Shown here: one piece after another, positions 3,149 through 24,190 of the stretch
How positions within the stretch are numbered: position 1 is the stretch's first letter
Layout: every line of letters starts with the position of its first letter
Source of the DNA: an uncultured Chloroflexia bacterium
GTDB lineage: Bacteria; Chloroflexota; Ktedonobacteria; Ktedonobacterales; JADMIN01
Length of the DNA stretch: 32,000 nucleotides
NCBI GenBank assembly: GCA_963718915.1
Contig: CAVRAI010000014.1
Coordinates: forward strand, 90,001 to 122,000
Direction: 5' to 3'
Notes under the pieces: generated by a model
Seen by the model: only the letters and a program-made list of their open reading frames with translations
Told to the model about the DNA's origin: nothing
The model's database searches: none
Program-made: the position numbers and the translations under genes

Positions 3149-3430
3149 CTAGTGTGGGTGGGGTGGAGACGAAGGCAAATCTTGCGTATCTTGTTGTGGA
3201 CGTATCTTGTTCATGATGCGATCAAGCTCGTCAGGGTAAATTGAGGGCAGGTCATATGCATTTCGCGGCGGCGCGCAGATATACGCCGGAAGTGCGCTCC
3301 TCGCGGCCGCATGGGATGCCGCCTGCCCGGGCAGTGATACTCGTCCATAGACCGCGAGTGTAGCCATGAGCAGCAGTGCGAAGATGGCAGTGGCTGCGAG
3401 TCTGCGCGGGTTCCGAATAGTCGCTGGCAT
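3149..3430 (-). CDS. small hypothetical signal-anchored/secreted protein
   Basis: 93-aa ORF with a strong SD (GGGGGAGGA) 8 nt upstream of ATG 3430. The N-terminus RRLAATAIFALLLMATLAVYG is a signal or anchor. I recognise no family. Confidence 0.55.
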   Translation of the reverse strand: MPATIRNPRRLAATAIFALLLMATLAVYGRVSLPGQAASHAAARSALPAYICAPPRNAYDLPSIYPDELDRIMNKIRPQQDTQDLPSSPPHPH

Positions 3431-3648
3431 CGTGTGTATCCTCCCCCTATTTCTTGTGTTCGCCGACCATACCCGACGACCATGTTCGTCAAGGAGTGTT
3501 GTCCTGGTGTCCAGTCTGCCCGGAGAAGTATTTCCAGACCACCGACAACCCCGACAATCACCCAGACAAGGCCTCCGACAATCGCTCGAAGTCGTTGATG
3601 AGGCAAGCTTGTGGATTTTGCGGGAGAGGTGTTATCATCAGGCAGCAA
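3211..3648 (-). CDS. candidate small TM protein (only core 3493-3606 is supported)
   Basis: Core RLRAIVGGLVWVIVGVVGGLEILLRADWTPGQHS aligns with QSEAIVVVLVGAIVRIVGGLAKLIQADWKPRQHS of ORF 7824-8066. The length difference is 9 nt, so the frame is preserved. Weak points: the starts are TTG, there is no convincing SD, and the 3' part overlaps the better-supported 3149-3430 in another frame. It may instead be conserved regulatory DNA. Confidence 0.25.
   Translation of the reverse strand: MLPDDNTSPAKSTSLPHQRLRAIVGGLVWVIVGVVGGLEILLRADWTPGQHSLTNMVVGYGRRTQEIGGGYTRCQRLFGTRADSQPLPSSHCCSWLHSRSMDEYHCPGRRHPMRPRGAHFRRISARRREMHMTCPQFTLTSLIAS
3609..3638 (+). promoter_or_regulatory. putative sigma70-type promoter of the XRE-SBP gene
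   Basis: TTGTGG, an 18-nt spacer, then TATCAT. The -10 block ggtgttatcat is conserved in the paralogous upstream region (8091-8106). The RBS GGGGGAG lies 8-14 nt before ATG 3737. Confidence 0.3.
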
Positions 3649-3736
3649 TACCGCGCACGTGTTGGAGTATGGTGTAGGCTTGAATCCTTTAGGTCGTAGC
3701 CAGTAGCCACATGGTGTAGAGGGGGAGACACGCCCT

Positions 3737-6175
3737 ATGGCCTCAACATCGTCTCTGACCTTCGCGGATCTGCTGCGGTATCACCGGACAGCCGCCGGAC
3801 TGACCCAGGAAGAGCTGGCGGAGCGGGCACACCTGAGCGTGGACGCCATCAGCACGCTGGAGCGCGGGACGCGCCGGACGCCCCGCAAAGACACGGTGGC
3901 GCTCCTCGCCGATGCATTGCGCCTCGCGTCGGAGGATCGCGCCGCATTTGTCGCCGCTGCGGCTGCCGCCCGTCGTGCCCCGTCCGTCACGCTGGCTGCC
4001 GCTCAGCCCGAGAGCCTTGTTCATGACGCCGGAGAGGCCCAAACCGCCGTAGCGTCTGCCGCCAACAACCCGCCCCGTAGCTTCGGCGCCTTCCTCGTCG
4101 ATACGTGGTCAACCGCGCGCGCGCATCTTATTGTGGTGGTTGCGCTGACCCTCGCACTACTCACTTTTATCGGCCTGCTCTTGCCGCTCATCATCCCAGC
4201 GTTACCGCGCGCGCTGGGACTGGTGACAGGTGTGGTGTCTCTGACGCTGCTAGTGGCGATCATTTTGACGCGACCATTACGCCTGACGCTAGTACATCAA
4301 TGGCGTGAGGCGCGCAAGCCGTTCGTGGCGGTGACGAGTGTGTTGTTGATGCTGGTAGGCGTGCTCACTACCCTGCCCGTCACCGGTACTGCGCCGCTCG
4401 CGCAGTCCCAGCGAGCTGTCTACGATTACAGCTACACCTACCATCATCCAACACACATTGGTGGCTCGATCACCGTCGGCTGGGCGGAGACTCTCCAGAC
4501 ATTTGCCCCGAATTGGATAGGCAACGGTATCTCGTGGTTCACGACCTCTCCGGTCTGGCAGGGATGCATCGTGCAGCTTCCTGACCAGACGCTTGGGCTG
4601 GCGGGCTGGAAGGCGGACCAATGCACACAGGTTCCCTCGGTGGACAATGGCGGAGAGAGTCACGACGAGACGACGACGACGATCCACATCGATCCTCGGG
4701 CCGTCTGGTCGAATGGTGTGCCCATCACCGCCGATGATTTTCTGTTTGGCCAGCGCCTCGCCGCCGACCCCAACCTGACCGGCGGGTTCCCCTTCGATCA
4801 GATGACACTTACCAGGCTCGATGCCCATACCGTCCGGATCCGGTGGGCAACGCCCTATCCAGATTTTCTCACTGCTCTCAGTTATTTGTTCCCAGTGCCA
4901 CTGCATGTGTATGCCACGGGCAAGTTCTCCAACATCTTCGATCCGACGACGGGCGCCTATAACTCTGCGCTGGCCCAGCAACTCAGGACGACCCCAGCGT
5001 TTAATACAACCATCCCGGTAGATAACGGCCCTTTTACCGTGCAGAGCTTCATTCCAAACCATCAGGTGGTTCTAGTCAAAAACCATCGCTTCTTCTCGAA
5101 CTTCTTTCACATGCCGGCGTTGGATAAGATCATACTGCTGCCAGCTTCCAAAGACTTTCTTCCGCAGCTTGCAGTCCCGCTTAATCCAGTGCCCCAGATG
5201 GAAGCTGATGTTATCGATCAGTATCGGCGAGGCTTGCTGGATCTCGCACTGCCGTTGACGCCGATCAACCTGCGTCAGTTAGGGAGTATACCCGGAAATC
5301 AGGTGGAAATCGGCTCCGCGTCTGATACGATAGAGCTTGGGTTTAACGAGCTCAAAGTAGCGCCCAATGTACGCACGAAGGGGGGCGTGTCCATCTTCAC
5401 CGACCGTATGGTGCGCCAAGCATTCATCGAGGCTTTTAATCGCTGTGCGGCGGTGCAATCCCTGCTCGGCGGCGTCAAGTGCAACGATCCGACTATCTTC
5501 ACCGATGAGTCAGACGCGACTGCTGCCGTCGCGGCCTACGATCCCTCCTTCAAACTGCCAGCGTACAATCCCCCCGATGCCGCGCGCCTTATGGAGGCGG
5601 CAGGCTACCATCTGGTGGACGGCGTCCGCCGCAACAAAGATGGTGTGACCCCGCTAACTCTCAGACTTGTCGTCTCGCCTGGAGCGAGCGGGAGCACCAG
5701 CATCGCACGGCAGATGCAGCAAGACTTCTCCAAGAATCTGGATGTCGGCGTAATCATCGTGGACGATCAGATCGCCTTCTGGAATCAAGCGAGCCCAATC
5801 AATACAGGCGCTTTTGACCTGATACTGGTTGAATCGCAAAACAGCGTAGATCCCATCGGACGTCTGACTTTTGATATGGCTGGGCCGTTTGATAACGCGA
5901 CGATTCAACAGGGGCTAGACCCTTTTGGGATCATCGACGCGCAGGCGAGCCAACGCGACCAATTAGCGGCACAGACGCTCTCCGACGAGCAGCGAGCGGT
6001 CATCCTGCTGAATTTGCATCGCTACTTCTCCCAGCAGTACTACGTCGAGCCGATGTATATCAACGATGTCGTCGCGCTGAAGAAGCCGACACTGTGCAAC
6101 TTCAAGCTGTGGCCAGATCCCGGCAGTCTCCTCTGGAACATCGCGGATTGGTATGTCGCGCCCATGTGCCCATAG
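3737..6175 (+). CDS. membrane-tethered XRE-family HTH regulator fused to an extracytoplasmic family-5 (DppA/OppA-like) solute-binding domain
   Basis: Intact 812-aa ORF. The N-terminus LTQEELAERAHLSVDAISTLERGTRRTPRKDTVALLADAL is an XRE HTH. Three hydrophobic helices follow at aa ~125-215. The rest has SBP_bac_5-like features (HIDPRAVWSNGVPITADDFLFG, DNGPFTVQSF.PNHQVVLVKN). No ABC permease or ATPase genes are nearby. Confidence 0.85.
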   Translation: MASTSSLTFADLLRYHRTAAGLTQEELAERAHLSVDAISTLERGTRRTPRKDTVALLADALRLASEDRAAFVAAAAAARRAPSVTLAAAQPESLVHDAGEAQTAVASAANNPPRSFGAFLVDTWSTARAHLIVVVALTLALLTFIGLLLPLIIPALPRALGLVTGVVSLTLLVAIILTRPLRLTLVHQWREARKPFVAVTSVLLMLVGVLTTLPVTGTAPLAQSQRAVYDYSYTYHHPTHIGGSITVGWAETLQTFAPNWIGNGISWFTTSPVWQGCIVQLPDQTLGLAGWKADQCTQVPSVDNGGESHDETTTTIHIDPRAVWSNGVPITADDFLFGQRLAADPNLTGGFPFDQMTLTRLDAHTVRIRWATPYPDFLTALSYLFPVPLHVYATGKFSNIFDPTTGAYNSALAQQLRTTPAFNTTIPVDNGPFTVQSFIPNHQVVLVKNHRFFSNFFHMPALDKIILLPASKDFLPQLAVPLNPVPQMEADVIDQYRRGLLDLALPLTPINLRQLGSIPGNQVEIGSASDTIELGFNELKVAPNVRTKGGVSIFTDRMVRQAFIEAFNRCAAVQSLLGGVKCNDPTIFTDESDATAAVAAYDPSFKLPAYNPPDAARLMEAAGYHLVDGVRRNKDGVTPLTLRLVVSPGASGSTSIARQMQQDFSKNLDVGVIIVDDQIAFWNQASPINTGAFDLILVESQNSVDPIGRLTFDMAGPFDNATIQQGLDPFGIIDAQASQRDQLAAQTLSDEQRAVILLNLHRYFSQQYYVEPMYINDVVALKKPTLCNFKLWPDPGSLLWNIADWYVAPMCP

Positions 6176-6826: not shown

Positions 6827-7827
6827 CTACACGTCTGACTGAACGCTATCGATCTTCCACGTGCTGCCGTCTTTGATGAACTTCATCGTCTGGTTGCTGA
6901 CTGTGGTGCTTGCGCCAGTTGCCGTGAGTGCGCTGAACTGCACCTCGTTGCTCGCGGCATCTCCATTCTCGCGGTAGAAACCATCGATGCCCGAAGAAAA
7001 AGGCTGGCACCCAGTGATTGTGACCTGCTGGCCGCCGAATGCGGTGGTTAGCTTCGTCGCAACATCTTGCGGGCTGCCGATCCGCGCCTGGAAAGCGGGC
7101 GTGAGATAGGAGTAGGCGGTCGAGTAGTCGTTGTGTGAGATGGCAGTGCAAAACGCGTTGAGTGTGACGTGGGCGCCGTTGGTCGCATTTGCCTGGGTGA
7201 GATTGAGTGCCGAGTTAGAGATGAAGTTGAATCCAAGGTAGCCGAGACCAAGGACGACCACGCATCCGATGATGATGAACACGAGCGGAATGCCCACGAT
7301 GGCCGCGGCCTGCCGCTTGTTGAGTCCGGCCGATGGCGGATTCTGGATGAATCCCTGTACTGGCGCGCCACCCCTATTTTCGTGATGTCGTCGAGCAAGG
7401 TGTTGATATCCTGCTCGAAATACTGGTTATTGTGCATCGGCGCGACGTTTTGGACCACCAACTGCTCGATGGTCGCAGGTAACGTCTCCGCATCTGGTAT
7501 CCCTGCATCGTCGATAAGCACGGGAATGATGCGTTTGCGCCAGCGAATGGCTGTCTCCACCTCGATGCGTACAGGATCGTTGGGTTGGTCGAGCCGACGT
7601 CCGTGTGCATCGCTGATGTTGAGCCATTGCGGGCCGATGACAACCAGAACAACTTTGCACTTACGGATTGTCTGGTCGATGAACTCGCGGAAGTCCACGC
7701 CGCGTGGAATCTTTTCCACATCGTAAAAGATGGCCTCTCGCCCAAATGCCTGGACCAGGTGATCGAACAGGCGACCTGTTGTCCCTTTTTCGTCTGCCCG
7801 ACGGTATGACAAAAAGATGTCATTCAT
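6827..7827 (-). CDS. TIR domain protein with C-terminal TM helix and extracytoplasmic NTF2-like domain (one frame break at 7371-7374)
   Basis: ATG 7827 gives MNDIFLSYRRADEKGTTGRLFDHL..FYDVEKIPRGVDFREFI..VVLVVIGPQWL..DPVRIEVETAIRWRKRIIPVLID, which reads as a TIR_2-like domain. After a C4 run the next frame reads GGAPVQGFIQNPPSAGLNKRQAAAIVGIPLVFIIIGCVVVLGLGYLGF plus a ~125-aa domain (ORF 6827-7297). The tail of ORF 7048-7848 is an off-frame read. Confidence 0.75.
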
Positions 7828-8066
7828 GCGATTGTCACCTCTGTACACGCCTCAATTCTGTGTGAAACGAAGGGTTGTGAGTTAAAGCTCCCGATGCCTG
7901 GCATGGTGTGCGGAGATGGCGGACCGTCGCGCGGGTGGCGCTTGGCGGCTAGCTCCACGTGGGAGTGCTGTCTTGGTTTCCAGTCTGCCTGGATGAGCTT
8001 TGCAAGGCCACCGACAATCCGTACAATTGCCCCGACAAGCACCACGACAATCGCCTCGGATTGCAA
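7824..8066 (-). CDS. candidate small TM protein upstream of TIR gene (core 7962-8066)
   Basis: 80-aa ORF with a TTG start. Its TM core is conserved with 3493-3606. Its stop overlaps the TIR ATG (ATGA at 7824-7827). No clear SD; it may be regulatory DNA instead. Confidence 0.3.
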   Translation of the reverse strand: MQSEAIVVVLVGAIVRIVGGLAKLIQADWKPRQHSHVELAAKRHPRDGPPSPHTMPGIGSFNSQPFVSHRIEACTEVTIA

Positions 8067-8077
8067 GCTGAACAGTA

Positions 8078-8106
8078 TTGCGTATAAACAGGCGTGGTGT
8101 TATCAT
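8078..8106 (+). promoter_or_regulatory. putative promoter of second XRE-SBP copy
   Basis: TTGCGT, a 17-nt spacer, then TATCAT. An alternative is TTGCAA (8061-8066), 16 nt, then TATAAA (8083-8088). The block ggtgttatcat is shared with 3628-3638. Confidence 0.3.
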
Positions 8107-8233
8107 GCAGCGCAAACCCCGTACGTTAGGGATCGTGGGGATGGGGGACGAAGGGATGAGCCGGAGCCCTTCGATAGTGTTGCCTAGATCGTGTCGGTTG
8201 TCTTCCCGTAATCTGGGAAAGAGAGCGACGGCC

Positions 8234-10687
8234 ATGGCCTCTACCCCAGCGCCGACCTTCGCGGACTTGCTCCGATCCCACCGTGTGGCCGCTGGACTCA
8301 CCCAGGAAGAGCTGGCGGCGCAAGCGCAACTCAGCGTTGATGCCATCAGCACACTGGAGCGTGGGACACGCCGCACGCCCCGCAAAGACACCGTTATACT
8401 GCTAGCTGATGCGCTGAATCTCTCGCCAGATGATCGCGCCGCTTTTGCCGCCGCCGCCCGTCGTGCCCTGACAGCTCCGCTGGCCGACGATCAGCCTGAG
8501 AGCCTTGTTGATGACGCCGGAGAGGCCCAAACCGCCGCCGCGTCTGCCGCCAACAACCCACCCTGTAGCTTCAGCGCCTTCCTCGTCGATACGTGGTCAA
8601 CCGCTCGCGCGCATCTTATCGTGGTGGTTGCGCTGACCCTCGCACTACTCACGATTATCGGCTTGCTCTTGCCGCTCACCGTCCCCACGTTTCCACGCGC
8701 GCTTGGTGTGATCGCGGGGCTGGCCGCAATTTTACTGGCGGCGGGAATGGTGGGTATGGCACTGGCGCGCCAACAACATCCAGCGCTGTTGCGGCAGCAG
8801 TTACGGGAGATGCGCCAACCAGTAGTCGCAGTGACGAGTAGCTTGCTCAGCCTCGTGGTCGTTCTTACAACCCTGTTCGTGACCAAGCCTCTGCCTATCA
8901 CGTCGCATGGGCCAGGCGGGTATGCATTCTTCAGCTACACCTATCACAAACCGACGCACACCGGTGGCTCTATCGTCGTTGGCACGTATTTAGACACTAC
9001 AACAGTTGCCCCGCGCGCGGTTGTCCACGTTGGTGATGATTGGTATCAAGCCTTGTGGAACAGTTGTCTGGTACAGTTGCCTGATCTGTCACTGGGATTG
9101 AACGGCTGGAAGGCGGATCAGTGTGTGAACGTGCCGACGGTTGCCGACGGTGAGGAAAACGTTGATGGCAGAACAACAAACTCCCGAATCGATCCTCGCG
9201 CCGTCTGGTCGGATGGGGCGCCGTCACCGCCGGAGACTTCATGTTCACCTTCCAACTGATGAGAGATCGCAACATCGGCTTTTTCGGCTCGAGTGATACT
9301 CTGCCCTGGCGCTTGATGCGCCTCACCGCGCTTGACTCTCATACCGTGCGGATTGATTGGTCCGCCCCGTATGGTGACTATCTTTTTGCGCTCCAATGGC
9401 TGACCCCACTTCCGCTGCACGCCTACGCACGTGGTAAGTTCGCTGGAGTGTACGATCCAGTCACAGGTGTGTACAACGCCGCACTTGCTCAACAATTGGC
9501 GGCAGACGTTATCTCAACACGGCCATCCCAGTAGATAATGGCCCATTCACGCTGAAGAGTTTCGTACCGCATGACCGTTTCGTTGTGGTCAAGATTTCCC
9601 GCTTCTTCTCTAACTTCTTCCACGCGCCCGCGCTCGATCAGATCACATTTGTCTCTACATCAGCGCCCAACATTGCTGTGAGCGAACAATTCGCAGCCTC
9701 CAAACGTGCATTGATTGCTGCATATCAACAAGGTGGACTGACGCTGGCCCTTGGATTGGGAGCCGCTGTATATGAATCAGTTAGGACGTATTCCTACTCA
9801 GGAGGTGATGAGCAGCCCCGTGCTCCGTTTCCTGATCCTGGGCTTCAACCAACGAAGCATAGCGCCCAACGCTCAAGCCAATGGTGGCGCGTCGATCTTC
9901 ACTGACATTACAGTGCGTAAGGCATTCACCGAGGCGTTTGACCGTTGTGCGGCGATGCATTTCGTGCTCGGCATTCACGACTGCAATGACCCAAGCTTCC
10001 ATACCGACGAACTCAGCGCGCCACCAGCCGCGGAGTACGATCCGACTGTCACAATGCCGACGTTCAACCCCACCGACGCCGCTGCGCTCATGGAACGCCT
10101 TGGCTTCCACGTAGTAGATGGTATCCGGCGATACAAGGATGGAAAGACGCCCATCAAGCTGACGCTTGCCCCTTCGCCATACGCCGTACAATTCGAGGAT
10201 ATCGCTCGTCGAATGCAACAAGACTACGCCCAGAACCTGAAGGTCGCTGTGAGTGTTGTGAGCGCTGATGTGGAGCCGAGCTTTTTTGTTCCAGGCGGGC
10301 TGGCGCAGACCGGGGCGTTCGACGTTGCCCTGTGGGGTGATGAAAATCTTGGTACGCCAGTGGACTTTATTGCGAATTATGGATGGGACAGCGCAGAGCA
10401 TACCAAGCGCGCAAAATCCTATTGGCGGCAACTTCCTGGGGGTGATAAATCCCTGGGTCCTCAGGCAGGATGAGCGTGGATCGCAGATATACGATGGCAG
10501 CCAGCGCACAGAAATTTACCGCGAGTTGGCGAGCCATGTGGCTCACTCACTCAGCATCGAGCCGCTATTCATCAATGCTGATATTTCACTGGTGAAACCG
10601 ACGCTCTGCAACTTCAAGCACTGGCCGCAATCCGGCTTCGATCTTTGGAACATCGCGGATTGGTATGTAGCGCCTTCATGCCCGTAG
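8234..10687 (+). pseudogene. paralogue of the XRE-HTH/TM/SBP5 fusion, interrupted by 4 frameshifts
   Basis: MASTPAPTFADLLRSHRVAAGLTQEELAAQAQLSVDAISTLERGTRRTPRKDTV.. is collinear with 3737-6175 across ORFs 8078-9259, 9241-9534, 9585-9905, 9751-10473 and 10268-10687. Frame breaks lie near 9221, ~9510, ~9765 and ~10390. I saw no in-frame stops. The C-terminus ..KPTLCNFKHWPQSGFDLWNIADWYVAPSCP matches copy A. Confidence 0.8.
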
Positions 10688-10705
10688 AGCGCGCTTAGGA
10701 GCGAC

Positions 10706-12015
10706 TCATTCGGCGCGCGCAGCCAGAGCGAGAGGTTCGTCTGGCTCCATCGTCTGCTGTACGACCACCAGTAAATGTTCGCTTAGGTCGCTCAGGTTGA
10801 CCTCCTGCCGCAGCGTGGCGCTGAAGCTGGCCAGCGTCTGCTCGACATTGTATTTGCGGCGATAGAAGCGGCGGTCGATGACACGCTGGAGACGGCGGCG
10901 TAACGGCTGGAAGAGCGCGGCGATGAGCAGTGTCGTCACCACGATAAGGGCGGGCGATGGCTCGCTGCTCTGACGCTGGGCGAATGCGTTGACGATGGCC
11001 TGCACGCCGACGACTCCCCCGACGTAGATCAGCGCAAGGATGGCGGTGAGCGAGCCGTAGACCAGCGTCCGGTTGATGATGACGTCGATATCGTAGAGCC
11101 GCGAGCGCAGAATCGCGATGGCTATCGAGATGGGGATCAGCAGCAGGAATCCTGCAAAGGCGGTCTGCGCGACAAACGTGCTGATCACGCTCGAAGCCAG
11201 CAACTCCGGTGGCAGCAGGAGATTCCCCAGCGTAAGGAGCGCACAAAGCCCACCATGCGATGGCAAAGCCGAAGACAACCCATTTGGTCTGCTGGCGCTC
11301 TCGATGGGTCGAGACGCGACGATAGCGGTAGATCTGCGCGGCTACAGGAGCCAGGACCGAGCCGAAGAAGAAGAGAATACTCCAGTCGAATGACTCACTG
11401 TAGATGAGATGGCTGAAGTAATCATAGGTCCAGTATCCACCAACCATGAGGACAAGCAGCCAGCTCTAACGTGGCACAAAGCGCCCATTAGGGAAGAGGA
11501 AGAAGAAGGTGATGAGACTGGTCTGCCCAAGGATATAGAGGATGCCGATACAACCAGAATCCAACGCCGGGCTGCACCGCCAGCGTATCCTGAAGGGTGG
11601 TCTCAAATGCGGCGCCACCAAAGAGCACCAGCGTGAAGGCGCAGAAGAGGGCCATCCGGTCACTGGAGCGCCGCCAGAAGATGATGGCGGCAATCACGCA
11701 GTAGATCAATACAACGACCGCGTTCCCTGCCGTCTGAAAATTTGCCAGGAATCCCAGCGTCAGGCCAGACTGGCGGAACAAACGCTGATCGAACGGCGTT
11801 GGGTGCAGATAAAAGCAGTGGATGCCGGGGGAACACGGCGTCTGCAGCAGTGCATTAAACCGCGGTAGCATGACGAAATTGAGCGCCAGCACAAGCAGCG
11901 TCAGCGCGATCCAGGCGACGCGGGCGATGAACAGCCAGGGGCCATGCAGCGTCTGTCCGCTGTCGGTCGAAGGCTGGACCGTGGCGCGCTCGACGGTCAT
12001 CGCTGGCTGATTCAT
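10706..12015 (-). pseudogene. paralogue of membrane protein 1596-2903, with 2 frameshifts and one in-frame TAG
   Basis: ATG 12015 sits behind GAGGAG. The pieces are 11488-12078, 11466-11693, 10695-11447 and 10706-11278. LFPNGRFVPR is followed by TAG (11466-11468) where the paralogue has Trp (VPRW). The tail LFQPLRRRLQRVIDRRFYRRKYNVEQTLASF matches copy A. Confidence 0.75.
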
Positions 12016-12916: not shown

Positions 12917-13050
12917 TACTATGAGTCCATGCTACGGAAGGATACGAGACAAGATCGCTCCTCCAGGCAACACAACAGCCCCACCCGGCTGACGATGCGA
13001 TTGCCCATCCGCCGAGATGAGGCTGTGTCGTGTGTTGTGAGTGAGCGCCG

Positions 13051-15340
13051 CTAGCCAGCCGACGAGCAGACGTAGAGTGTGCCGCCGGATGTCGCCGCCA
13101 TACTCGCTCGCGGCGACCTGCGTGCAGTTCGACGTGACCCAGCTCACTAACTGGCCGTTGCCGCCGCCCTGACCGCCGAAGCCGCCACCACCGCCATCCA
13201 GCAGGAAGTAGCGAATGGCCCCGGAGCTAACCAGCGCCTGAAGCTGGCTCACGCTCAGAATCTGGTCGGAGCCGCTAAAGCCACCCAGCGCGATGACCGG
13301 CTGGCCGCTTGCGATGATGTAGGGCGCCGCCGTCTGCGAGTTGAGCGTCGCGAGGAGGTAGCGGGCCGAGCCGCGATGCGCCTCCAGGTAGGCGAGCAAC
13401 TGCTCGTTCACCTGCAAGCTCTGGCCGCCGTTGCCATTGGCGACGCCGCCAGTGGGCGCGCCACCGCCGCCGTTGCCCGGCCCAAATTGTCCGTTGCCCT
13501 GCCCGCCGAAGGCTGGTGGGAAGCCGCCGAGGCCGCCATTGCGCGGGCCACCGGGGACGAAGCCGTTGGGGGAGAGCGGCCGCCGCCAAGCCCGCGCGGG
13601 CCACCGTTGCCGCCGAAGCCACCACCCTGCGCCAGACTCGCCGAGGGGCCAGCCGTCGGCAGCGTGCCACCCGCGCCGCTGGCCAGCGAGACGCCCACCC
13701 AGGTCGCCGGGCCAAGCAGCAGCAGCGCGACACCGAGCGCCGTCGCCACCACCGCAACCGCCGACGAGCGGCAGCCGGTCCGCGAATGCATTGCGCGGCG
13801 TATCGACAGCAGGCAGCGGTCCACCGGTGGCGGGCAGCAGCGTGGGGTAGCAGGCGGCGCGTGGAACGCCACCAGGCCAGCAGCGCGGCGATCGGCAGCG
13901 AGCCACCGACGATCAGCGGCGTCATCCAGCGGTTCCAGCGGTGTAGTCGGCCAGGATGACGCCTGGACAAGGGCGGTGACGACGCAGCGCGACCGGCAGC
14001 AGACAACCATGCCAGCCCGCCGCGCGATAGTCACGCCAGAGCAGGACGCCCGATGCCGGCCAGCGCGGCGATGCCTGGCGCGAGCATCGAGAGATAATAG
14101 GTGTGGATAGAAGCCCGCGACGCTGAAGAAGATCGCCATCGTCAGCGTCCAGCCGCCCCAGAGCGCCAGCGCCGACTGTTGCGGCGTCAGATGGGCGTTG
14201 CGCCGCGCCTCCGCCGAGTGGAACCAGGAGCGGACGTCGGCGCGACGAGCGACTGCCCGTTCCGGCGGATGCCCCAGCCCGTCGCCAGCAGGCCGATCGA
14301 CGCCGAGCGCGAGCAGCCAGCTCACCTGGCCGCCAAGCTGCGCATTCAGCAGGCGGAAGAGGCCCGGCACGCCGTTCTCGGAGACGCCGCCGGGCCCGCC
14401 CGCCGCGGTCGGTCCGCTGGTGATGGCCGAGATGATGGACGAGCCGGAGGTTGAGCCGCCACGGAAGACCATGCCCAGCAGCCGCTGGATGCCGTTGTAG
14501 CCGAGGGCCAGATCAAGCTCGGAGTTGGTGCCGCTGGAGCCGACGTAGGGGCGCTGGCGTGGCGGGCGTCAGGTCCACGGCGACGACCCAGGCGAGCGAG
14601 ACGGCCAGCATCAGCCGCGCCGGCGACGCGCCAGGTGCCAGAGGCGCGTGCGCCAGCGCAGCGGCGCGCCGAGCAGATAGACAGCGCGAAGGCCGGCACG
14701 ACCAGATAGGCCTCGAGCATCTTGATGTTGAAGCCGAGGCCGACCAGCACCGCGCCGAGCAGCAGCCAGCGCAGGCTGCCCGCGCTCGGCGGCGCGGCTC
14801 ACGGCCCAGGCGCCCAGCAGCACGGTCAGCACGAGCAGGCTGTCGATGGTGTTGTTGCGGTTGGTGACGACGCTGATCGGCGTGATGGCCAGGAACAGCG
14901 CCGCCAGCAGCCCGGCGCACGGCGCCGAAGACGCGCCGCACCAGATGATAGAGCACGCCGACCGAGAGCACGCCGGCCAGCGCCTCGGGCAGCAGGATGC
15001 TGAAGCCGCTGAAGCCGAAGAGCTTGGCGCTGGCCGCCTGGATCCAGAAGCCGAGCGGCGGCTTATCGACGGTGACGAAGCCGCCCGGATCGAAGGAGAC
15101 GAAGAAGAAGTTGTGCCAGCTCTCCAGCATGCTGCGGATGGCCGCCGCGTAGTAGAGGTTGGCGTAGCCGTTGCGCTGCAGCTCGTAGAAGTTGGTGAAG
15201 GCGGCCAGCAACAGGATCAGCGCGAGCGCCTGGCGGCGGCGCGGCTCCCAGAAGGCGCGCAAACGCCCAGGGAGCGAGCGGAACGGTGAGGCTGGCGACG
15301 CGGCGTCATCGAGCGCCGGTGGGGCGATATCGGTTGCCAT
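13051..15340 (-). pseudogene. glycosyltransferase family 39 (ArnT/PMT-like) membrane protein, at least 6 frame breaks
   Basis: The N-terminus reads ..ALILLLAAFTNFYELQRNGYANLYYAAAIRSMLESWHNFFFVSFDPGGFVTVDKPPLGFWIQAASAKLFGF. Later pieces are scattered over all three frames (14611-14832, 14346-14750, 13408-14472, 13275-14006, 12932-13906). The C-terminus reads ..LLAYLEAHRGSARYLLATLNSQTAAPYIIASGQPVIALGGFSGSD..IRYFLLDGGGGG..ASEYGG, then with a shift GGTLYVCSSAG* ending at 13051. Confidence 0.75.
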
Positions 15341-16839: not shown

Positions 16840-17478
16840 TTACCGGCTACGGCGGGCGGGCGCGACCCGCGATGTGTTGGCCCGCGGCGCTTCTGGCCAG
16901 AAGATACGGGCGAGGACGAGCAGCGTTACCACGCCGGAGAAGCCCAGATAGAGCGCGCGCATCCATGGCTCGCCGGAATCGCTGCCCGCGAAGATGCCGT
17001 GGAGCGTCACCAGGACGAATGCGGCGAAGCTGGTATAGTGCAGCGCACGCCAGCTTGCATAGGCGATGCGTCGCTTCGCCCACGAGCTCAGCCAGACCAC
17101 CGCCAGCCCGTAGAGCGCCAGCACGCCCAGATCCACCGCAAGTGGCCGGTAGGGCTGGTCGAAGGGCAGGAGCAGGTTGAGCAGCGAGAACGGGATGAGC
17201 GGATCAAAGACCAGCGAGAGCAGGTGGAAAACCACCAGCGCCAGCGTGAGCACCGCCAGATAGGGATGCAGCTCATCCAGGAGCCAGAGCGCGCGCGCAT
17301 TGCGCAGCCGCGAGACACGCGCCAGCGAGCGGAAAAGGCCGATGATGACGGTGACCGAGAGGGTGATATAGGCGGAGGTCGCCGCCGCGCGGGTGACGTA
17401 CCATAGGAACGGGTTGGTGGTTGCGCTGGTCGCCGCGAGCGTGAGACTCAGCGACGAGAGCGATGTGAAGATATTCAT
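16840..17478 (-). CDS. ferric-reductase-like (MsrQ/FRD-type) haem-binding transmembrane protein
   Basis: ATG 17478 (MNIFTSLSS..) overlaps the ApbE stop (ATGA). The protein is 212 aa with about 6 TM helices and conserved His (ELHPYLAV..VVFHLL, ALHYTSF..VTLHGIF). It is the in-frame tail of track ORF 16840-18498. Confidence 0.75.
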   Translation of the reverse strand: MNIFTSLSSLSLTLAATSATTNPFLWYVTRAAATSAYITLSVTVIIGLFRSLARVSRLRNARALWLLDELHPYLAVLTLALVVFHLLSLVFDPLIPFSLLNLLLPFDQPYRPLAVDLGVLALYGLAVVWLSSWAKRRIAYASWRALHYTSFAAFVLVTLHGIFAGSDSGEPWMRALYLGFSGVVTLLVLARIFWPEAPRANTSRVAPARRSR

Positions 17479-18680
17479 GGTTTCTGCTCCAGTTGGCGCA
17501 TCTCGGCGAGGGTGAGCGGCGGGAGCGCCGAGCCCACCATCATCGGCAGCATCGCGCTCTGCGTGCCCCAGGTGGCGAGATATTCGTTCAGGTTGCGCGA
17601 GAAGGCAATCTCGCCTGTGCCAAAGACAAGAGCCAGCGCGACCCCGGCGTCGCCATCGTCCCGCGGGCCAAGCGCGCCGTAGCGCCCCCAGGCGGATTCG
17701 ACGGCTGCGAGCGCGCTGGGATAGCCGCGCAGCAGCGCCACCTTGGCGGCTACCTCTGCCTGCGCTGCTGTCGGCGCGAATGCCGTGGCCGTGGCGATCA
17801 GCGAGTCTGGCTCGTCGCCGCCTGAGGTCCAGAGCGGTATCGGCTGGCCGGTACGCGGATCGAGCAGGTGATGCTGGCGCTGGCCATCGCGCAGCCACCA
17901 GCGCCGCACCGCGCCAGAGGTCGCCATCGCGCCGCGACTCAGGCGTACGGTCGCCAGATGGGTTCGCCGGATCGTCTATGCCCGATAGCTCCAGCCGTGG
18001 GTCGCGAATACCCACCGACCAGAGTTCACCTGGCTGCTGCCCACCATGCGCGCGCAGGTCGCCGCCGACGTTGACGAGCGCGCCGGGAAATTTGGCGCAG
18101 TAGCGGACGAGCGCGACATCCGCCGCCCAGCCCTTAGCGATGCCGCCGAAATCTAGCTGCAGCCCAGCGGGAAGCCGTATCCGCCTGCGTCGTGGGTCGA
18201 GCGCGATGGCGCGCCAGGCAGCGCGTACGGCGGGCGCTGGAAGATCGAAGGCGGTTGCAACCTCATGGTGGGCGATGGCGGCGAAGTCGCGGTCGTAGCC
18301 GAGGGCGCACAACTGCCGCAGCATCGTCGGGTCGAAGAGGCCGCCGCTGGATTCAGCCGATTCGAGTGCCAGCGCTGTGCACTCATAGAGCACATCGGAG
18401 GCGGCAAACCAGCCGCCCGCCGCAGTGTTCAGGCGGCTCAGCTCGCTCTCGGGCCGGAAGCGCGAGAGGCGCGTGTCAACCTCGTCGAACCAGTCCATGC
18501 AGGCGGCGGCGGCGGCGGCGGCCTCGGCCCAGCGGACGATGGGACGGCGATCTGCATGCTGACGTCGGTAGCCATCGGTCGCCCGCGACGCTGGACCAAC
18601 TCATAGCGGTCGTCCGCGCGGCAATCGGTATCGTCTATCGAGACGGTGGAGCGTCCACCGAAGGGTGTGGATGTTGTCAT
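17475..18680 (-). pseudogene. apbE: FAD:protein FMN transferase (ApbE family), 2 frame breaks
   Basis: MTTSTPFGG..RRGRPMATDVSMQIAV (18438-18680). Then ..AEAAAAAAACMDWFDEVDTRLSRFRPESELSRLN..FDPT..LDFGGIAKGWAAD..VNVGGDLRAHG..WSVGIRDP (frame of 16840-18498). Then ..LSRGAMATSGAVRRWW..HHLLDPRTGQP.. (17475-17927). Breaks lie near 18530-18550 and 17960-17972. I see no signal peptide. Confidence 0.75.
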
Positions 18681-20857: not shown

Positions 20858-20926
20858 ACGGGCACGCCAGTGTGCTACCATAGGCGCACGAGCGAATCGA
20901 GGGCCACAGGCGAAGATGGGGCGCAC

Positions 20927-21700
20927 ATGACTGAGCGGCGACAAGTGATCTGCTATGCCCATCGCGGCGCGCGCGGACACGCGCCCGAAAACACCCTGCT
21001 GGCCTTCGACCTCGCCTTCGACCTCGGCGCGGAGGCCATCGAGTGTGACGTGCAGCGCAGCCGCGATGGCGAGCTGGTCATCATCCACGACGGCACGGTC
21101 AACCGCACCACCAACGGCGTGGGGGCCGTCGCCGCGCTCTTTCGCCGACCTGCGCGCGCTCGATGCCGGGCGGGTCTGGCGCATCCCGCAGCGCATCCCA
21201 ACGCTGGCCGAGACGCTCGAACTGGTGCGGCGAGCGTGGCGGCGCGCTCAACCTGGAGATCAAGGGCGAGTCGGTCGAGGAGTCCGTCGGCACGGCGGAG
21301 GCGGTCGAGCCAGTGCTGCGCGCGCTGGAGGAGCCACTACGTTCGCGGCTGCTGGTCTCCTCGTTCGAGCATCCCGCCGTGGCGCTCTTGAAGGAGCGGC
21401 TGCCGTGGCTGCGGGTGGCGACGCTCTATAGCGGGCGCGAGTGGCAGAAGGCGGATATGCTCGCCCCGGCGCTGGCGATGGGCGCGGAGGCGATCCACCC
21501 CGGCGTCGGCCTCACCACCGCCGACCTGGTGACGCGGGCGCATGCCGGGGACTGCGCGTCAACGTCTGGACGGCCAACCGCTCCGCCACCATCCGCAAGC
21601 TGATCGCCTGGGGCGTGGACGGCCTCTTCAGCGACTACCCCGAGCGCGTCATCATCGCCCGCGCGCAAATGGCGGCACAGGCATGCCACAGCAGACGGGA
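20927..21700 (+). pseudogene. glycerophosphodiester phosphodiesterase (GDPD family), 3 frame breaks; 3' end uncertain
   Basis: [64 protein letters not shown].. Then [29 protein letters not shown]. Then [27 protein letters not shown]. Then GLRVNVWTANRSATIRKLIAWGVDGLFSDYPERV. Breaks lie near ~21143, ~21235 and ~21548. The present frame runs on to 21896 into the convergent MFS gene, so the true stop is unclear. Confidence 0.7.
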
Positions 21701-21709
21701 TGATATGCG

Positions 21710-22984
21710 CTACTGGCGCTGGTCGCGGGGGATGAAGAGCAGGACCGTGGCGGCGGCCATGTACGAGGCGGCCATCAGCAGGAACGCCGGGATGAAGCTG
21801 CCGGTGCGGTCAATCACACTGCCGAGGATGACATCCCAGAGCGAGCCGATGCCAAAGGCCAGCGTGAAGTACCAGCCCATCGCCACGTCGCGCTGATCCG
21901 GCGCGGAGTTGTCCACCAGATACGTCTGGAGCAGCGGACTCTCGCAGTAGACGACCAGCCCCAGCCCCGTGATCGAGATCACCATGATAATCAGCGGCGC
22001 GCCCCCGCCGAAGACTACCGGCACCAGCAGCGTGAAGACCGTCGCCAGCCCATAGCTGACCAGCAGCAACGGACGCCGCCCGGCCCGATCCGAGATGCGC
22101 CCGGCCAGCAGCGGCCCCACGATGCTGCCAGCCAGCAGCAGCGTATAGAGGACGGTCACAGTGGTCTGCGGCAGCTTGATCGGCCCCAGCAGGTAGAGCG
22201 GCAGATACTTGGTCAGGATGCCCAGCCCGCGTCCGCCCGCGGCGACCAGTGAGGCGATGATGACCAGCACGACGCCACGGTGGCGGAGCGGCGCGAAGAG
22301 TGTCGCGATACGCGCGCTGAGGGGACGGTCAGTGGACTTCACAACGGGCTTCGCCTCGGGCCGGGCAGGCTCGCGCGTCAGCAACATCACAGCGGACCCG
22401 GCGGCCAGCCCAGGCAGGGCGAAGATCATCAACGTGGGCTGCCAGCCGAACGACTTGATGAGCGCCGCGCCGATGAATGGCACCAGCAGCGTGCCGACGT
22501 TGCCGCCCGCCACGTGCCCGGCAATCGCGAATCCACGCCTGCGCGCGCCGTAGCTATCGGCGAGGATCGAGTTGCCCGCCGGGTGTTGTGGCGCGCCGCC
22601 AATGCCGCGCAGCGCCGACCAGCCCAGCCACGGCAGAAACGTGACGGCGGTCGCGGTCATGAACGTCGCCACCGCGACGACAAGGTTGCCGACGCCAATC
22701 AACACCTTGCGCGGGACGCTGCGGCTGAGGTAGCCAAAGACCAGTTGGAGCAGTCCGCCCGCCAGCCCCGAGACGGTGCCGATGAGGCCAATCTGCGTAT
22801 AGCTGAAGCCGTACTGGTCGTGCAGAATCGGGAAGATGAGCGGCATCAGGATGCTGACGCCATGGAGGACGGCATGGGCCGCGCTGACGGTAATCAGATT
22901 GGCGCGGGCGTCGGCTGGCGGCAGGGCTGCTAGCTCGTCGGGCGGGAGCGTCGCCTGCCGGGTGTTGGTATCGAGGGATGACAC
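21710..22984 (-). CDS. MFS transporter
   Basis: Intact ORF 21710-23035 with 12 hydrophobic segments. It has MFS loop motifs (GYLSRSVPRKVLI, GRISDRAGRRPLLL). I prefer GTG 22984, which has GGAGGA 10 nt upstream, over the SD-less TTG at 23035. Confidence 0.85.
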   Translation of the reverse strand: MSSLDTNTRQATLPPDELAALPPADARANLITVSAAHAVLHGVSILMPLIFPILHDQYGFSYTQIGLIGTVSGLAGGLLQLVFGYLSRSVPRKVLIGVGNLVVAVATFMTATAVTFLPWLGWSALRGIGGAPQHPAGNSILADSYGARRRGFAIAGHVAGGNVGTLLVPFIGAALIKSFGWQPTLMIFALPGLAAGSAVMLLTREPARPEAKPVVKSTDRPLSARIATLFAPLRHRGVVLVIIASLVAAGGRGLGILTKYLPLYLLGPIKLPQTTVTVLYTLLLAGSIVGPLLAGRISDRAGRRPLLLVSYGLATVFTLLVPVVFGGGAPLIIMVISITGLGLVVYCESPLLQTYLVDNSAPDQRDVAMGWYFTLAFGIGSLWDVILGSVIDRTGSFIPAFLLMAASYMAAATVLLFIPRDQRQ

Positions 22985-23077
22985 GATGCGCAAGTCCTCC
23001 AGGTGTTCTGGAAACAGCGTAACACACCCCGGCAAGCGGTTAGGGTGGCAGCGGTCGCGGTCAATTGGCGCGCATCA

Positions 23078-24190
23078 TTACACCTGCACATTATTGGCGA
23101 GGTACTGGATATGCTGGATATCGCGCTGCCAGTAGACCTGGGCTTTCGTGGAGTTGAGGCTAAGCGCGGCCACACGCGCTGGTTTGCTGCTCTCTGGCCC
23201 GCCCGCCAGCATCGCGAAGACGACGCCCTGCATCTCGGTGATCTGGATGGGCGTGTAGCCAGGGAATCGCGATAGACATGCCTTGGTTTCCAGTGGTCGC
23301 GTCCAGCGCGATGACCGCGTTCATTATGCGTGCCGTAGACAAGTGGTTGGCGTCTGCACGATGCCCGGCCAGCCATCGAACTCGACAGGCACGTTCCAGA
23401 GCGTCTGCCCGTCTCCGGATCGAGACTGGCGACATGCTGCGAGCCGCTGACCAGCACCGATTGGTCGTTCACGCTGACGAGATTGCCCGCGATCTCGCTG
23501 TGCCAGAGTTCCTTGCCCGTGCGCGCGGCATACGCCAGTACCTCGTTGCTCTCCGGAGGTATAGATGGTGCTATGGTTGATGCCAGCCAGGGCGGCATAG
23601 ATCAGTTGCCAGAGCGGCTTGCCATCATCCTCCTGATAGACCGCCAGATGCGCGCCCTGGCCCTGCGCGTCGGTGATGGTGGCGATGGCGAGACCATCCT
23701 TCACATAGACCGGGTCGGTCGCGGGCTGATCCAGTCGCCAGCGGAGCGCGCCGGTGGCGGCGTCCAGCGCGAAGAGGCCGTCCGCCTTCGCCTGCGCCAG
23801 CACGATCACGCCATCGCTCGCGATGGTGAAGTCCGGGTTGGGCATCGGAGCCTTCCAGAGCGTATGCCCGTCGCTGGCGCGCACAGCCACCAGCGTTCTC
23901 GACGATGGCTGTGTTGAGCCGCCTTCAGTGTAGATGATCCCATTGACCATGATTGGCTGGAAATTCGTACTCGGCTCCCCGGTCGCCGCATGCCAGGCGT
24001 CGTTGCCGTCGCGCCCGTTGAGGGCGGTCAGCCCCGCCGTCGTAGTCCCGCTACCGCCGACGGAGTAGGGAATAGTGATGTGCGAAGCGAGAGGAGCGGC
24101 CGCGTTGAAGATGCTCGTCTCGCCGCAGCCACTGAGCAACAGCGAGACCAGGACGACGATGACGAGCGACGCAGCTATAGACAGCGCCAC
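23078..24190 (-). pseudogene. PQQ-like beta-propeller repeat lipoprotein, 4 frame breaks
   Basis: MALSIAASLVIVVLVSLLLSGCGE contains a lipobox. Repeats of the type ..LVAVRASDGHTLWK.., ..LFALDAATGALRWR.., ..AYAARTGKELWH.., ..VIALDATTGNQ.. are spread over ORFs 23324-24190, 22930-23598 and 23160-23435. My translation of the last part reads ..GYTPIQITEMQGVVFAMLAGG..AQVYWQRDIQHIQYLANNVQV* ending at 23078. Confidence 0.7.

Follow-up and report, generated by a model that had tools for sequence, protein, structure and literature searches.

The regulators ToxR, TcpP and CadC are single polypeptides in which an N-terminal DNA-binding domain in the cytoplasm is joined through a membrane span to an extracytoplasmic sensor, and regulators of this type act on upstream repeat sites near promoters, with CadC additionally holding a long disordered cytoplasmic linker. 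BcrR, the bacitracin sensor of Enterococcus faecalis, is a membrane-bound one-component protein with an N-terminal XRE-type helix-turn-helix (HTH) and four transmembrane (TM) segments, and senses within the membrane. In the Venus-flytrap kinases BvgS and EvgS and in the natriuretic-peptide receptor guanylyl cyclases, a bilobed solute-binding fold serves as a covalent extracellular input. Here, we analyse a gene for a further combination, an XRE-type HTH joined through three TM helices to a family-5 solute-binding protein (SBP) domain (SBP5), found in a 32,000-nucleotide stretch of contig CAVRAI010000014.1 from an uncultured soil bacterium of the Chloroflexia (positions 90,001 to 122,000; hereafter the window). 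We consider it rather probable that the protein works as a transmembrane one-component regulator, in which the SBP5 domain senses an extracellular ligand, the three-TM (3TM) module transmits the signal and the XRE domains bind an array of GACAA repeats.

A 2023 census collected 50,302 transmembrane transcription regulators (TTRs) from 11,337 genomes, with HTH_3 and HTH_31 making up 9% and 2.9% of their DNA-binding domains; SBP_bac_3 and SBP_bac_8 appear among the partner domains in two cases each, and SBP_bac_5 in none (PMC10269533). BcrR is discussed in the same paper and in PMC3968067. Family-5 SBPs that take part in signalling (DppA, CBP and AibA) are treated in a review as free receptor-docking proteins (PMC8050422). 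TTRs are defined by a DNA-binding domain and at least one TM region in one protein, and the window protein combines HTH_31/HTH_3 with three TM segments. Its principle is therefore a known one, and its design, an SBP5 sensor with an XRE HTH, is undescribed.

The preliminary description of this DNA, made from the sequence and its open reading frames, had proposed an intact gene with an XRE HTH, three hydrophobic helices at about residues 125-215 and an SBP5-like remainder of about 580 residues, and each of these parts is borne out below. The reading frame is open throughout, and a protein identical to its product is held in a public database (P0001, on a 243-kb contig). The fold was modelled with AlphaFold2 (AF2) from a 68-sequence family alignment (mean predicted local distance difference test score, pLDDT, 80.6), and selection was compared as the ratio of nonsynonymous to synonymous substitution rates (dN/dS) among orthologs and paralogs from three genomes that carry XRE as their only N-terminal module (XRE-only). 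The parts of the gene, with the evidence for each, are as follows.

3737 to 6175, + strand: complete XRE-3TM-SBP5 gene, 812 aa, stop codon included (open reading frame)
3761 to 3946, + strand: XRE-type HTH, aa 9-70, with recognition helix LSVDAISTLERG (Pfam, AF2 model)
3947 to 4081, + strand: cytoplasmic linker, aa 71-115, Ala-rich and poorly conserved (pLDDT, dN/dS)
4082 to 4384, + strand: membrane region, aa 116-216, with juxtamembrane motif D-x-W-x3-RA-x-L and TM1-TM3 (hydropathy, charges, AF2)
4385 to 4453, + strand: extracytoplasmic juxtamembrane motif YD(F/Y)SYTYHxPTHxGG, aa ~217-239, specific to the family (conservation)
4454 to 6172, + strand: family-5 solute-binding (cluster C SBP) ectodomain, aa ~240-812 (Pfam, Foldseek, cysteine conservation)

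The N-terminal domain scores well above the Pfam cut-offs of both HTH_31 (aa 9-70, 49.3 bits against 27) and HTH_3 (aa 13-63, 41.5 bits against 23). Its modelled helices (9-20, 24-31, 35-43, 51-60 and 65-87) make up the five-helix Cro/C1-type fold, with a pLDDT of 92-96 over aa 11-40 and 51-70, 78 in the loop at aa 41-50 and lower values beyond aa 70. The solved structures nearest to it are DdrO, HipB and ClgR, and CapH also resembles it, all of them DNA-binding XRE proteins. Between this domain and the membrane, pLDDT falls below 50 for aa 83-115, a disordered stretch, at a position occupied by a class III cyclase domain in paralogs.

From about aa 240 to the C-terminus, the model is a confident bilobed domain. 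SBP_bac_5 matches at aa 307-701 (128.7 bits, cut-off 32.4, E 3.7e-37), and Foldseek against the PDB returned family-5 SBPs exclusively (E 1.7e-25 to 1e-22, target TM-scores 0.70-0.83, 15-19% identity). EppA (6wm7) is the top match (E 1.7e-25, target TM-score 0.79), NikZ and CtaP reach target TM-scores of 0.83 and 0.82, and NikA, AppA, OppA and MppA are further matches. The NCBIfam models Opp4A, NikA and OppA matched weakly and partially, far under their equivalog cut-offs, which marks the domain as a divergent SBP5. The nearest structures span binders of EDTA, nickel chelates, cysteine, peptides and sugars at that same 15-19% identity, and therefore do not carry over to a ligand class. The binding-site region differs between paralogs, and the aspartate position of the OppA/DppA-type 'GWxxDxxDP' motif is apparently not conserved in the family consensus, in an alignment judged by eye.

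The membrane region holds three TM segments (TM1, aa 129-152; TM2, 160-177; TM3, 197-216), with 19-residue Kyte-Doolittle peaks of 2.98, 2.59 and 2.26 and AF2 helices at 116-152, 158-177 and 179-216. The TM1-TM2 loop is short and outer, whereas the TM2-TM3 loop (aa 178-196) is basic and contains QWRxARKP, with W189, R190 and R193 at least 90% conserved. Across the 68 homologs, mean K+R is 5.2 in the roughly 20 residues of the TM2-TM3 loop versus 0.6 in the 7 residues of the TM1-TM2 loop, so that by the positive-inside rule the N-terminus and the TM2-TM3 loop are cytoplasmic and the SBP domain lies outside. The N-terminal modules of paralogs (HTH, nucleotide cyclase and TIR) require cytoplasmic substrates, and all six cysteines (277, 296, 570, 582, 787 and 811; five invariant, one at least 90% conserved) fall in the C-terminal domain, as fits disulfides outside the cell. 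The predicted topology is thus N-in/C-out, which agrees with the earlier placement of the HTH inside and the SBP outside from an odd TM count. Sequence inspection found neither a lipobox nor a conserved signal-peptidase (A-x-A) site after TM3, the first cysteine being aa 277, so that the SBP domain would remain tethered. The lack of a lipobox or cleavable signal peptide, together with the absence of a cognate permease or ATPase nearby, also sets the protein apart from substrate-binding components of ATP-binding cassette (ABC) transporters.

The window protein shares the layout of ToxR, TcpP and CadC, but in ToxR and CadC the DNA-binding domain is an OmpR-type winged helix (Trans_reg_C) and there is one TM segment, in place of an XRE HTH, three TM segments and a 570-aa SBP5 sensor; Pfam gives no Trans_reg_C match in the window protein, which leaves it outside the ToxR/CadC group. 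BcrR has four TM segments and no large extracytoplasmic domain, and differs by this description from a protein with three TM segments and a 596-aa portion downstream of TM3. BvgS, EvgS and the natriuretic-peptide receptors use class I/II folds (SBP_bac_3, ANF_receptor) and place their outputs C-terminal to the membrane span, whereas the window protein has a family-5 fold, an N-terminal DNA-binding domain as output, a C-terminal sensor and three TM segments; its cyclase-carrying paralogs mirror the receptor-cyclase layout. In the pairs DppA-Tap, CBP-ChiS and AibA-TlpB, family-5 SBPs likewise feed ligand information into signalling (PMC8050422), but as separate soluble proteins that also serve an ABC transporter, whereas the SBP5 domain here is fused and has no linked transporter genes. 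RodZ likewise begins with an XRE-like HTH and crosses the membrane to a C-terminal domain outside the cytoplasm, but combines HTH_25 with DUF4115, has one TM segment instead of three and uses its HTH to bind MreB. With an HTH_25 score of 15.7 bits, below the cut-off of 24.6, and no DUF4115 in the Pfam results, the window protein falls outside the RodZ family.

A search for relatives among 5.8 billion proteins yielded about 90 clear family members, and all those with a named taxon come from Ktedonobacterales metagenome bins. Among 185,579 species-representative genomes, the family was found in five bins alone, of uncultured Ktedonobacterales/Chloroflexia. The family, as we define it here, is that of Ktedonobacterales 3TM-SBP5 receptors; its shared part comprises the TM region and SBP5, and the N-terminus varies. 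The 68 aligned members have in common QWRxARKP, the pre-TM1 motif D-x-W-x3-RA-x-L (kept in XRE-only proteins), YDFSYTYHxPTHxGG with Y233 and P238 invariant and Y229, F231, Y235, H236, T239 and H240 at least 90% conserved, a C-terminal WNxADWYxAPxCP and the six cysteines, and the window protein carries every one of these motifs. XRE is the only N-terminal module in about 11 proteins (790-823 aa), XRE together with Guanylate_cyc occurs in about 30 (about 1000 aa), the cyclase alone in about nine, TIR_2 in about eight, and TIR and cyclase together in one. The cyclase part of the paralogs matches the solved class III cyclase Ma1120 (E 8e-24). On a neighbour-joining tree of the SBP domain, these output types are intermixed, with XRE-only proteins at three separate positions, and therefore outputs were swapped repeatedly.

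This modularity, with no linked transporter genes, supports the reading of the SBP5 domain as a sensor. The earlier suggestion that an SBP module had been co-opted for sensing thus gains from finding the same 3TM-SBP5 unit fused to XRE, to XRE and cyclase, to cyclase or to TIR, with no ABC genes flanking it. Within the window, no large open reading frame contains an ABC permease or ATPase domain (BPD_transp, ABC_tran), a six-frame scan found no Walker A motif, and the sole two LSGG[QE] matches lie in non-ABC contexts, in line with the preliminary description. The four other loci at which this was checked (L001, L041, L042 and L043) likewise have no ABC transporter genes within 10 kb, a distant transporter elsewhere in the genome being possible.

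Selection acts unevenly along the protein. Low dN/dS in the HTH (0.11-0.19) and in the SBP domain (0.15-0.18) indicates that both end domains are kept by purifying selection, and values are higher in the TM region (0.34-0.54) and the linker (0.40-0.68).

Full-text literature searches, with a coverage excluding most subscription journals, returned no description of the XRE-3TM-SBP5 architecture or of these Ktedonobacteria receptors. With SBP_bac_5 missing from the TTR census, this upholds the earlier statement that the combination is not a described one. The architecture is not unique, however, as judged from database proteins: tens of them show XRE-TM-SBP5, with at least three origins within Ktedonobacteria, including two more lineages that each have a single TM helix. 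XRE-TM-Peripla_BP_6 proteins also exist (P0096 and others). Furthermore, hundreds of Ktedonobacteraceae proteins of about 950 aa (P0124-P0239) combine a Ser/Thr kinase (Pkinase) with TM and SBP5, and others of about 860 aa are XRE-TIR-TM-SBP5; no paper describing either type was found. The two single-TM lineages lie among these kinase and TIR fusions. Together, these additional XRE, kinase and TIR fusions make the joining of binding-protein folds to signalling modules a theme of Ktedonobacteria.

The DNA upstream of the gene offers a possible target for the XRE domain. The features concerned, including the equivalent element before a second gene copy in the window, are as follows.

3510 to 3520, + strand: second conserved box TCCAGTCTGCC (consensus yCmAGTsTGCC), about 25 nt 5' of the GACAA element (alignment of 11 instances, and L074)
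3537 to 3583, + strand: GACAA element, candidate operator, with four direct repeats at 3544-48, 3553-57, 3565-69 and 3577-81 (spacing 9/12/12)
3609 to 3638, + strand: putative promoter, TTGTGG, 18-nt spacer and extended -10 TGtTATCAT (motif conservation)
8006 to 8052, + strand: element of copy 2, with GACAA at 8013-17, TACAA at 8022-26 and GACAA at 8034-38 and 8046-50, followed by the motif GGTGTTATCAT at 8096-8106

The core of the element is 45 nt long and reads (G)ACCACCGACAAC-nCGGACAATC-nCnCnGACAAnnACnCnGACAATC. Its triple-repeat pattern is confined, within the window, to the two elements (chance expectation 0). In distant members, too, an extended -10-like motif, GGTGyTATCAT, follows the last GACAA at a distance of about 52 nt, and GGTGTTATCAT is found in the window only at 3628 and 8096 and in L001-L005 exclusively before family genes. 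A consensus promoter scan did not report the putative promoter at 3609-3638, so its assignment is one that we infer. The upstream block of both copies also precedes paralogs in L001 (elements at 4616-4655 and 9787-9826) and the ortholog in L043 (~9670). Before the members in L007 (~5818), L010 (~5718) and L042 (~9752), which are 43-59% identical in protein, the element is kept although the surrounding DNA is not alignable; L049, L054, L064 and L074 also have it. Altogether, 12 complete copies lie upstream of genes that begin with the XRE cassette, and one more is truncated by a contig end.

An unbiased scan of a metagenome collection for the repeat pattern gave 28 matches. Of these, 23 are unrelated (GACAAC)n repeats coding for Asp/Asn, and the other five reduce to three separate genuine elements, which precede XRE-cassette genes by 164-340 nt: a family member (L064/L066), the XRE-TM-Peripla_BP_6 gene of P0096 (L054) and an XRE-cyclase gene with a Walker A motif (L049/L062), which is probably a STAND-type ATPase. 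Of three further XRE-STAND genes, L074 has a full element, L073 has the last repeat, correctly spaced from the -10, at the edge of its contig, and L075 has none. Upstream of three family genes that have a cyclase but no XRE (L006, L008 and L011), the element is missing, and it was seen solely before genes starting with the XRE cassette, whether for an SBP5 receptor, a Peripla_BP_6 receptor or a STAND ATPase. This co-occurrence with the cassette, and the absence before XRE-less relatives, make the GACAA element a candidate operator, the best one available, which would probably serve autoregulation.

Other readings of the upstream block were rejected. A small minus-strand open reading frame for a hydrophobic peptide (AIVGGLV...ADWxPxQHS) has variable sites distributed 14/12/14 over codon positions and no conserved start codon, and the peptide reading breaks down in L010 while the DNA repeats persist; with this even distribution and the failure in L010, the block is treated as non-coding. 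An RNA element was likewise set aside, since no part of the window matched Rfam. Between the block and the start codon, there are two types of 5' leader of about 100-130 nt, one common to window 3640-3736 and L001 12505-12635, the other to window 8107-8233 and L001 9883-10000. Copy 1 has its leader and first codons in common with P0005 and a body closest to P0002, further evidence of paralog exchange; the leaders have no Rfam match.

If the protein is a regulator of the kind proposed, an extracellular ligand would close the SBP lobes in a Venus-flytrap movement, and this closure would alter how the 3TM module packs or oligomerises. The XRE domains, on flexible linkers of about 45 residues, would then change their DNA binding, in pairs or arrays and without leaving the membrane, as ToxR or CadC do. 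The most likely target would be the four GACAA repeats about 52 nt upstream of the gene's own -10, giving autoregulation, and the site also lies before other XRE-cassette genes. We favour a change in oligomeric state because class III cyclases, which are obligate dimers, are driven by this 3TM module in paralogs, and because the linker to the HTH is flexible.

Several points weigh against this proposal. That the protein binds a ligand, couples this event across the membrane and attaches its XRE domains to the GACAA array is in each case inferred, as is the sign of regulation. The disorder and fast evolution of the linker between the HTH and TM1 make mechanical coupling unlikely, leaving control through oligomerisation or proteolysis. 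Only about 11 of about 70 family proteins are XRE-only, most of the relatives bearing a cyclase, and both the XRE-only relative P0005 (L001) and the third XRE-STAND gene (L075) are without the element. Moreover, the XRE cassette (TFADLLRxHRxAAGLTQEELAERAxLSVDAISTLERGxRRxPRKDTVALLADAL), recognition helix LSVDAISTLERG included, is near-identical in SBP5 and Peripla_BP_6 receptors and in cytosolic STAND/TPR proteins (P0094, P0095, P0096, P0097 and P0112), which makes a private regulon doubtful and one common DNA target probable, unless the HTH has another role. The element could also be bound by another factor, or recombination could merely carry it along with the 5' end of the cassette; the latter leaves unexplained an identity of about 90% in the element alongside divergence of the 5' untranslated region and flanks.

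Ligand binding might instead trigger or block cleavage in the linker or at the membrane, freeing the XRE domain into the cytoplasm. There are precedents in the cleavage of DdrO by IrrE and of CapH by CapP and in regulated intramembrane proteolysis, and the disordered, fast-evolving linker of about 45 residues, the presence of DdrO and CapH, XRE repressors under cleavage control, among the nearest HTH matches and the use of the same cassette in cytosolic proteins all suit such a release. We nevertheless regard it as unlikely, as no protease gene is conserved beside the family genes (L001, L041, L042 and L043), three-TM proteins are not usual substrates of site-2 proteases, and the cyclase and TIR paralogs must signal without release, which implies that the chassis transmits across the membrane. 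A comparably small chance attaches to a tethered SBP that still works in transport, passing a peptide, metal chelate or oligosaccharide to an ABC permease whose gene lies elsewhere, with an XRE domain that is only autoregulatory. TM-anchored SBPs are common in monoderm bacteria, the SBPs of the P0089 clade (another XRE-SBP5 lineage) are 47-55% identical to free SBP5 proteins of about 570 aa annotated for transport, and a GACAA element before the gene itself fits plain autoregulation. However, no permease or ATPase genes were seen at five loci, the unit also carries cyclase and TIR outputs, an arrangement sensible in a sensor but not in part of a transporter, the conserved 3TM module with its basic loop exceeds the needs of a simple anchor, and identity to transport SBPs of known structure is just 15-19%.

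The near-identity of the cassette and its LSVDAISTLERG helix across SBP5, Peripla_BP_6 and STAND/TPR proteins, unusual for separate regulons, would be accounted for if the HTH were not a sequence-specific regulator but a RodZ-like module for protein interaction or nucleoid tethering, and the XRE-only protein a scaffold or co-receptor. A sharply conserved 45-nt element at a fixed promoter distance in otherwise diverged DNA, the sub-threshold HTH_25 score without DUF4115 and the DNA-binding nature of all the closest solved relatives make this quite improbable. It is less probable still, to the point of being hard to credit, that the XRE-only form is a non-functional, cyclase-deleted derivative of an XRE-cyclase receptor. 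Most relatives do carry a cyclase, the juxtamembrane motif that trails the cyclase in paralogs is still present and the second copy in the window is disrupted, yet XRE-only orthologs are intact in at least three genomes, with the low dN/dS given above for HTH and SBP, and occupy three separate positions on the SBP tree. The one-component regulator acting from the membrane is thus the reading that we retain.

The second copy does not repeat the architecture intact, as had first been thought:

8234 to 10687, + strand: second paralog, disrupted, with HTH, linker and TM segments intact to ~9223 and four frameshifts thereafter

Its homology passes through frames 3, 2, 1, 2 and 3, with breaks near 9223, 9513, 9731-9751 and 10397. 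Its closest relative is P0036, a 990-aa XRE-cyclase-3TM-SBP5 protein from another sample, with 74-88% identity per piece, but nothing in copy 2 corresponds to the cyclase of P0036 (residues 68-289). Over its first ~470 nt, copy 2 shares 82% DNA identity with copy 1. With a 5' part like copy 1 and the rest like P0036, copy 2 looks recombinant, its N-terminal module having been exchanged near TM1. A firm assignment as a pseudogene could not be sustained, as unrelated genes in the window are frameshifted too: against intact orthologs in L043, GDPD (20870-21896; ~92% identity) has three shifts, ApbE/ferric reductase (16840-18680) two and PMT/YkcB (12932-15340) at least two. These shifts suggest assembly indel errors or widespread gene decay, and the two are indistinguishable for copy 2, whose shift sites lie outside long homopolymers. 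A PQQ-repeat gene (22930-24190) is likewise split by frameshifts. Between the two receptor copies, on the minus strand at 6827-7848, a TIR_2 open reading frame (7048-7848) passes out of frame into one with TM and DUF4864-like parts (6827-7297); this is probably a single TIR-TM-ectodomain gene that has been split.

The window, L001 and L043 share a gene order of an ADI-like gene, a 435-aa polytopic membrane protein, a small secreted protein and the receptor, followed by VIT1, PMT, ferric reductase/ApbE, GDPD and MFS. The receptor is present once in L043, three times in tandem in L001, and once with a disrupted second copy in the window; distant members at L041 and L042 lie in unrelated contexts. 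Conserved neighbours were therefore discarded as partners, since the contexts of L001, L041, L042 and L043 differ except for local synteny among close relatives. The 435-aa membrane protein (1596-2903, - strand) is divergent and upstream of the receptor, with syntenic counterparts in L001 and L043, and a fragment of a paralog, 46-48% identical, lies just 3' of copy 2 (10695-11546, - strand). A small open reading frame at 3149-3430 (- strand) has a signal-peptide-like start (MPATIRNPRRLAATAIFALLLMATLA...), and its position is kept in L001 (68 aa) and L043. In L042, the XRE-cyclase-3TM-SBP5 gene of P0013 is followed after 100 nt by a PycTM-type effector gene (13137-13685, + strand; PADLOC E 1e-20). 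A link to Pycsar-type defence was rejected, as no second locus among those examined has PycTM and the cyclase matches PycC weakly (E 3.8e-5).

Taken together, these data allow a broader reading, which we offer tentatively as possible but less than probable. The family would be an undescribed surface-receptor system of filamentous Ktedonobacteria, with an SBP5-3TM chassis recombined with XRE, class III cyclase or TIR outputs, a bacterial counterpart of receptor cyclases and Toll-like receptors. A cassette of promoter, GACAA operator and XRE domain would wire SBP5, Peripla_BP_6 and STAND NTPase sensors to a common operator, forming a cross-regulating network, not private circuits.

If the proposed regulator is real, the large family-5 fold joins the covalent sensor domains of membrane-bound transcription factors. 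The GACAA-repeat element is an immediately testable candidate DNA target, and engineered biosensors could be modelled on the 3TM-SBP5 family, making use of an SBP5 ligand pocket that is well understood. The shared XRE cassette, in turn, raises the question of how sensors with one recognition helix avoid or exploit cross-talk. The family as a whole is a natural experiment in receptor modularity, in which one chassis carries DNA-binding, cyclase or TIR outputs and the recombination junctions are visible in the window; this modular receptor family and its shared operator cassette are the parts most worth following.

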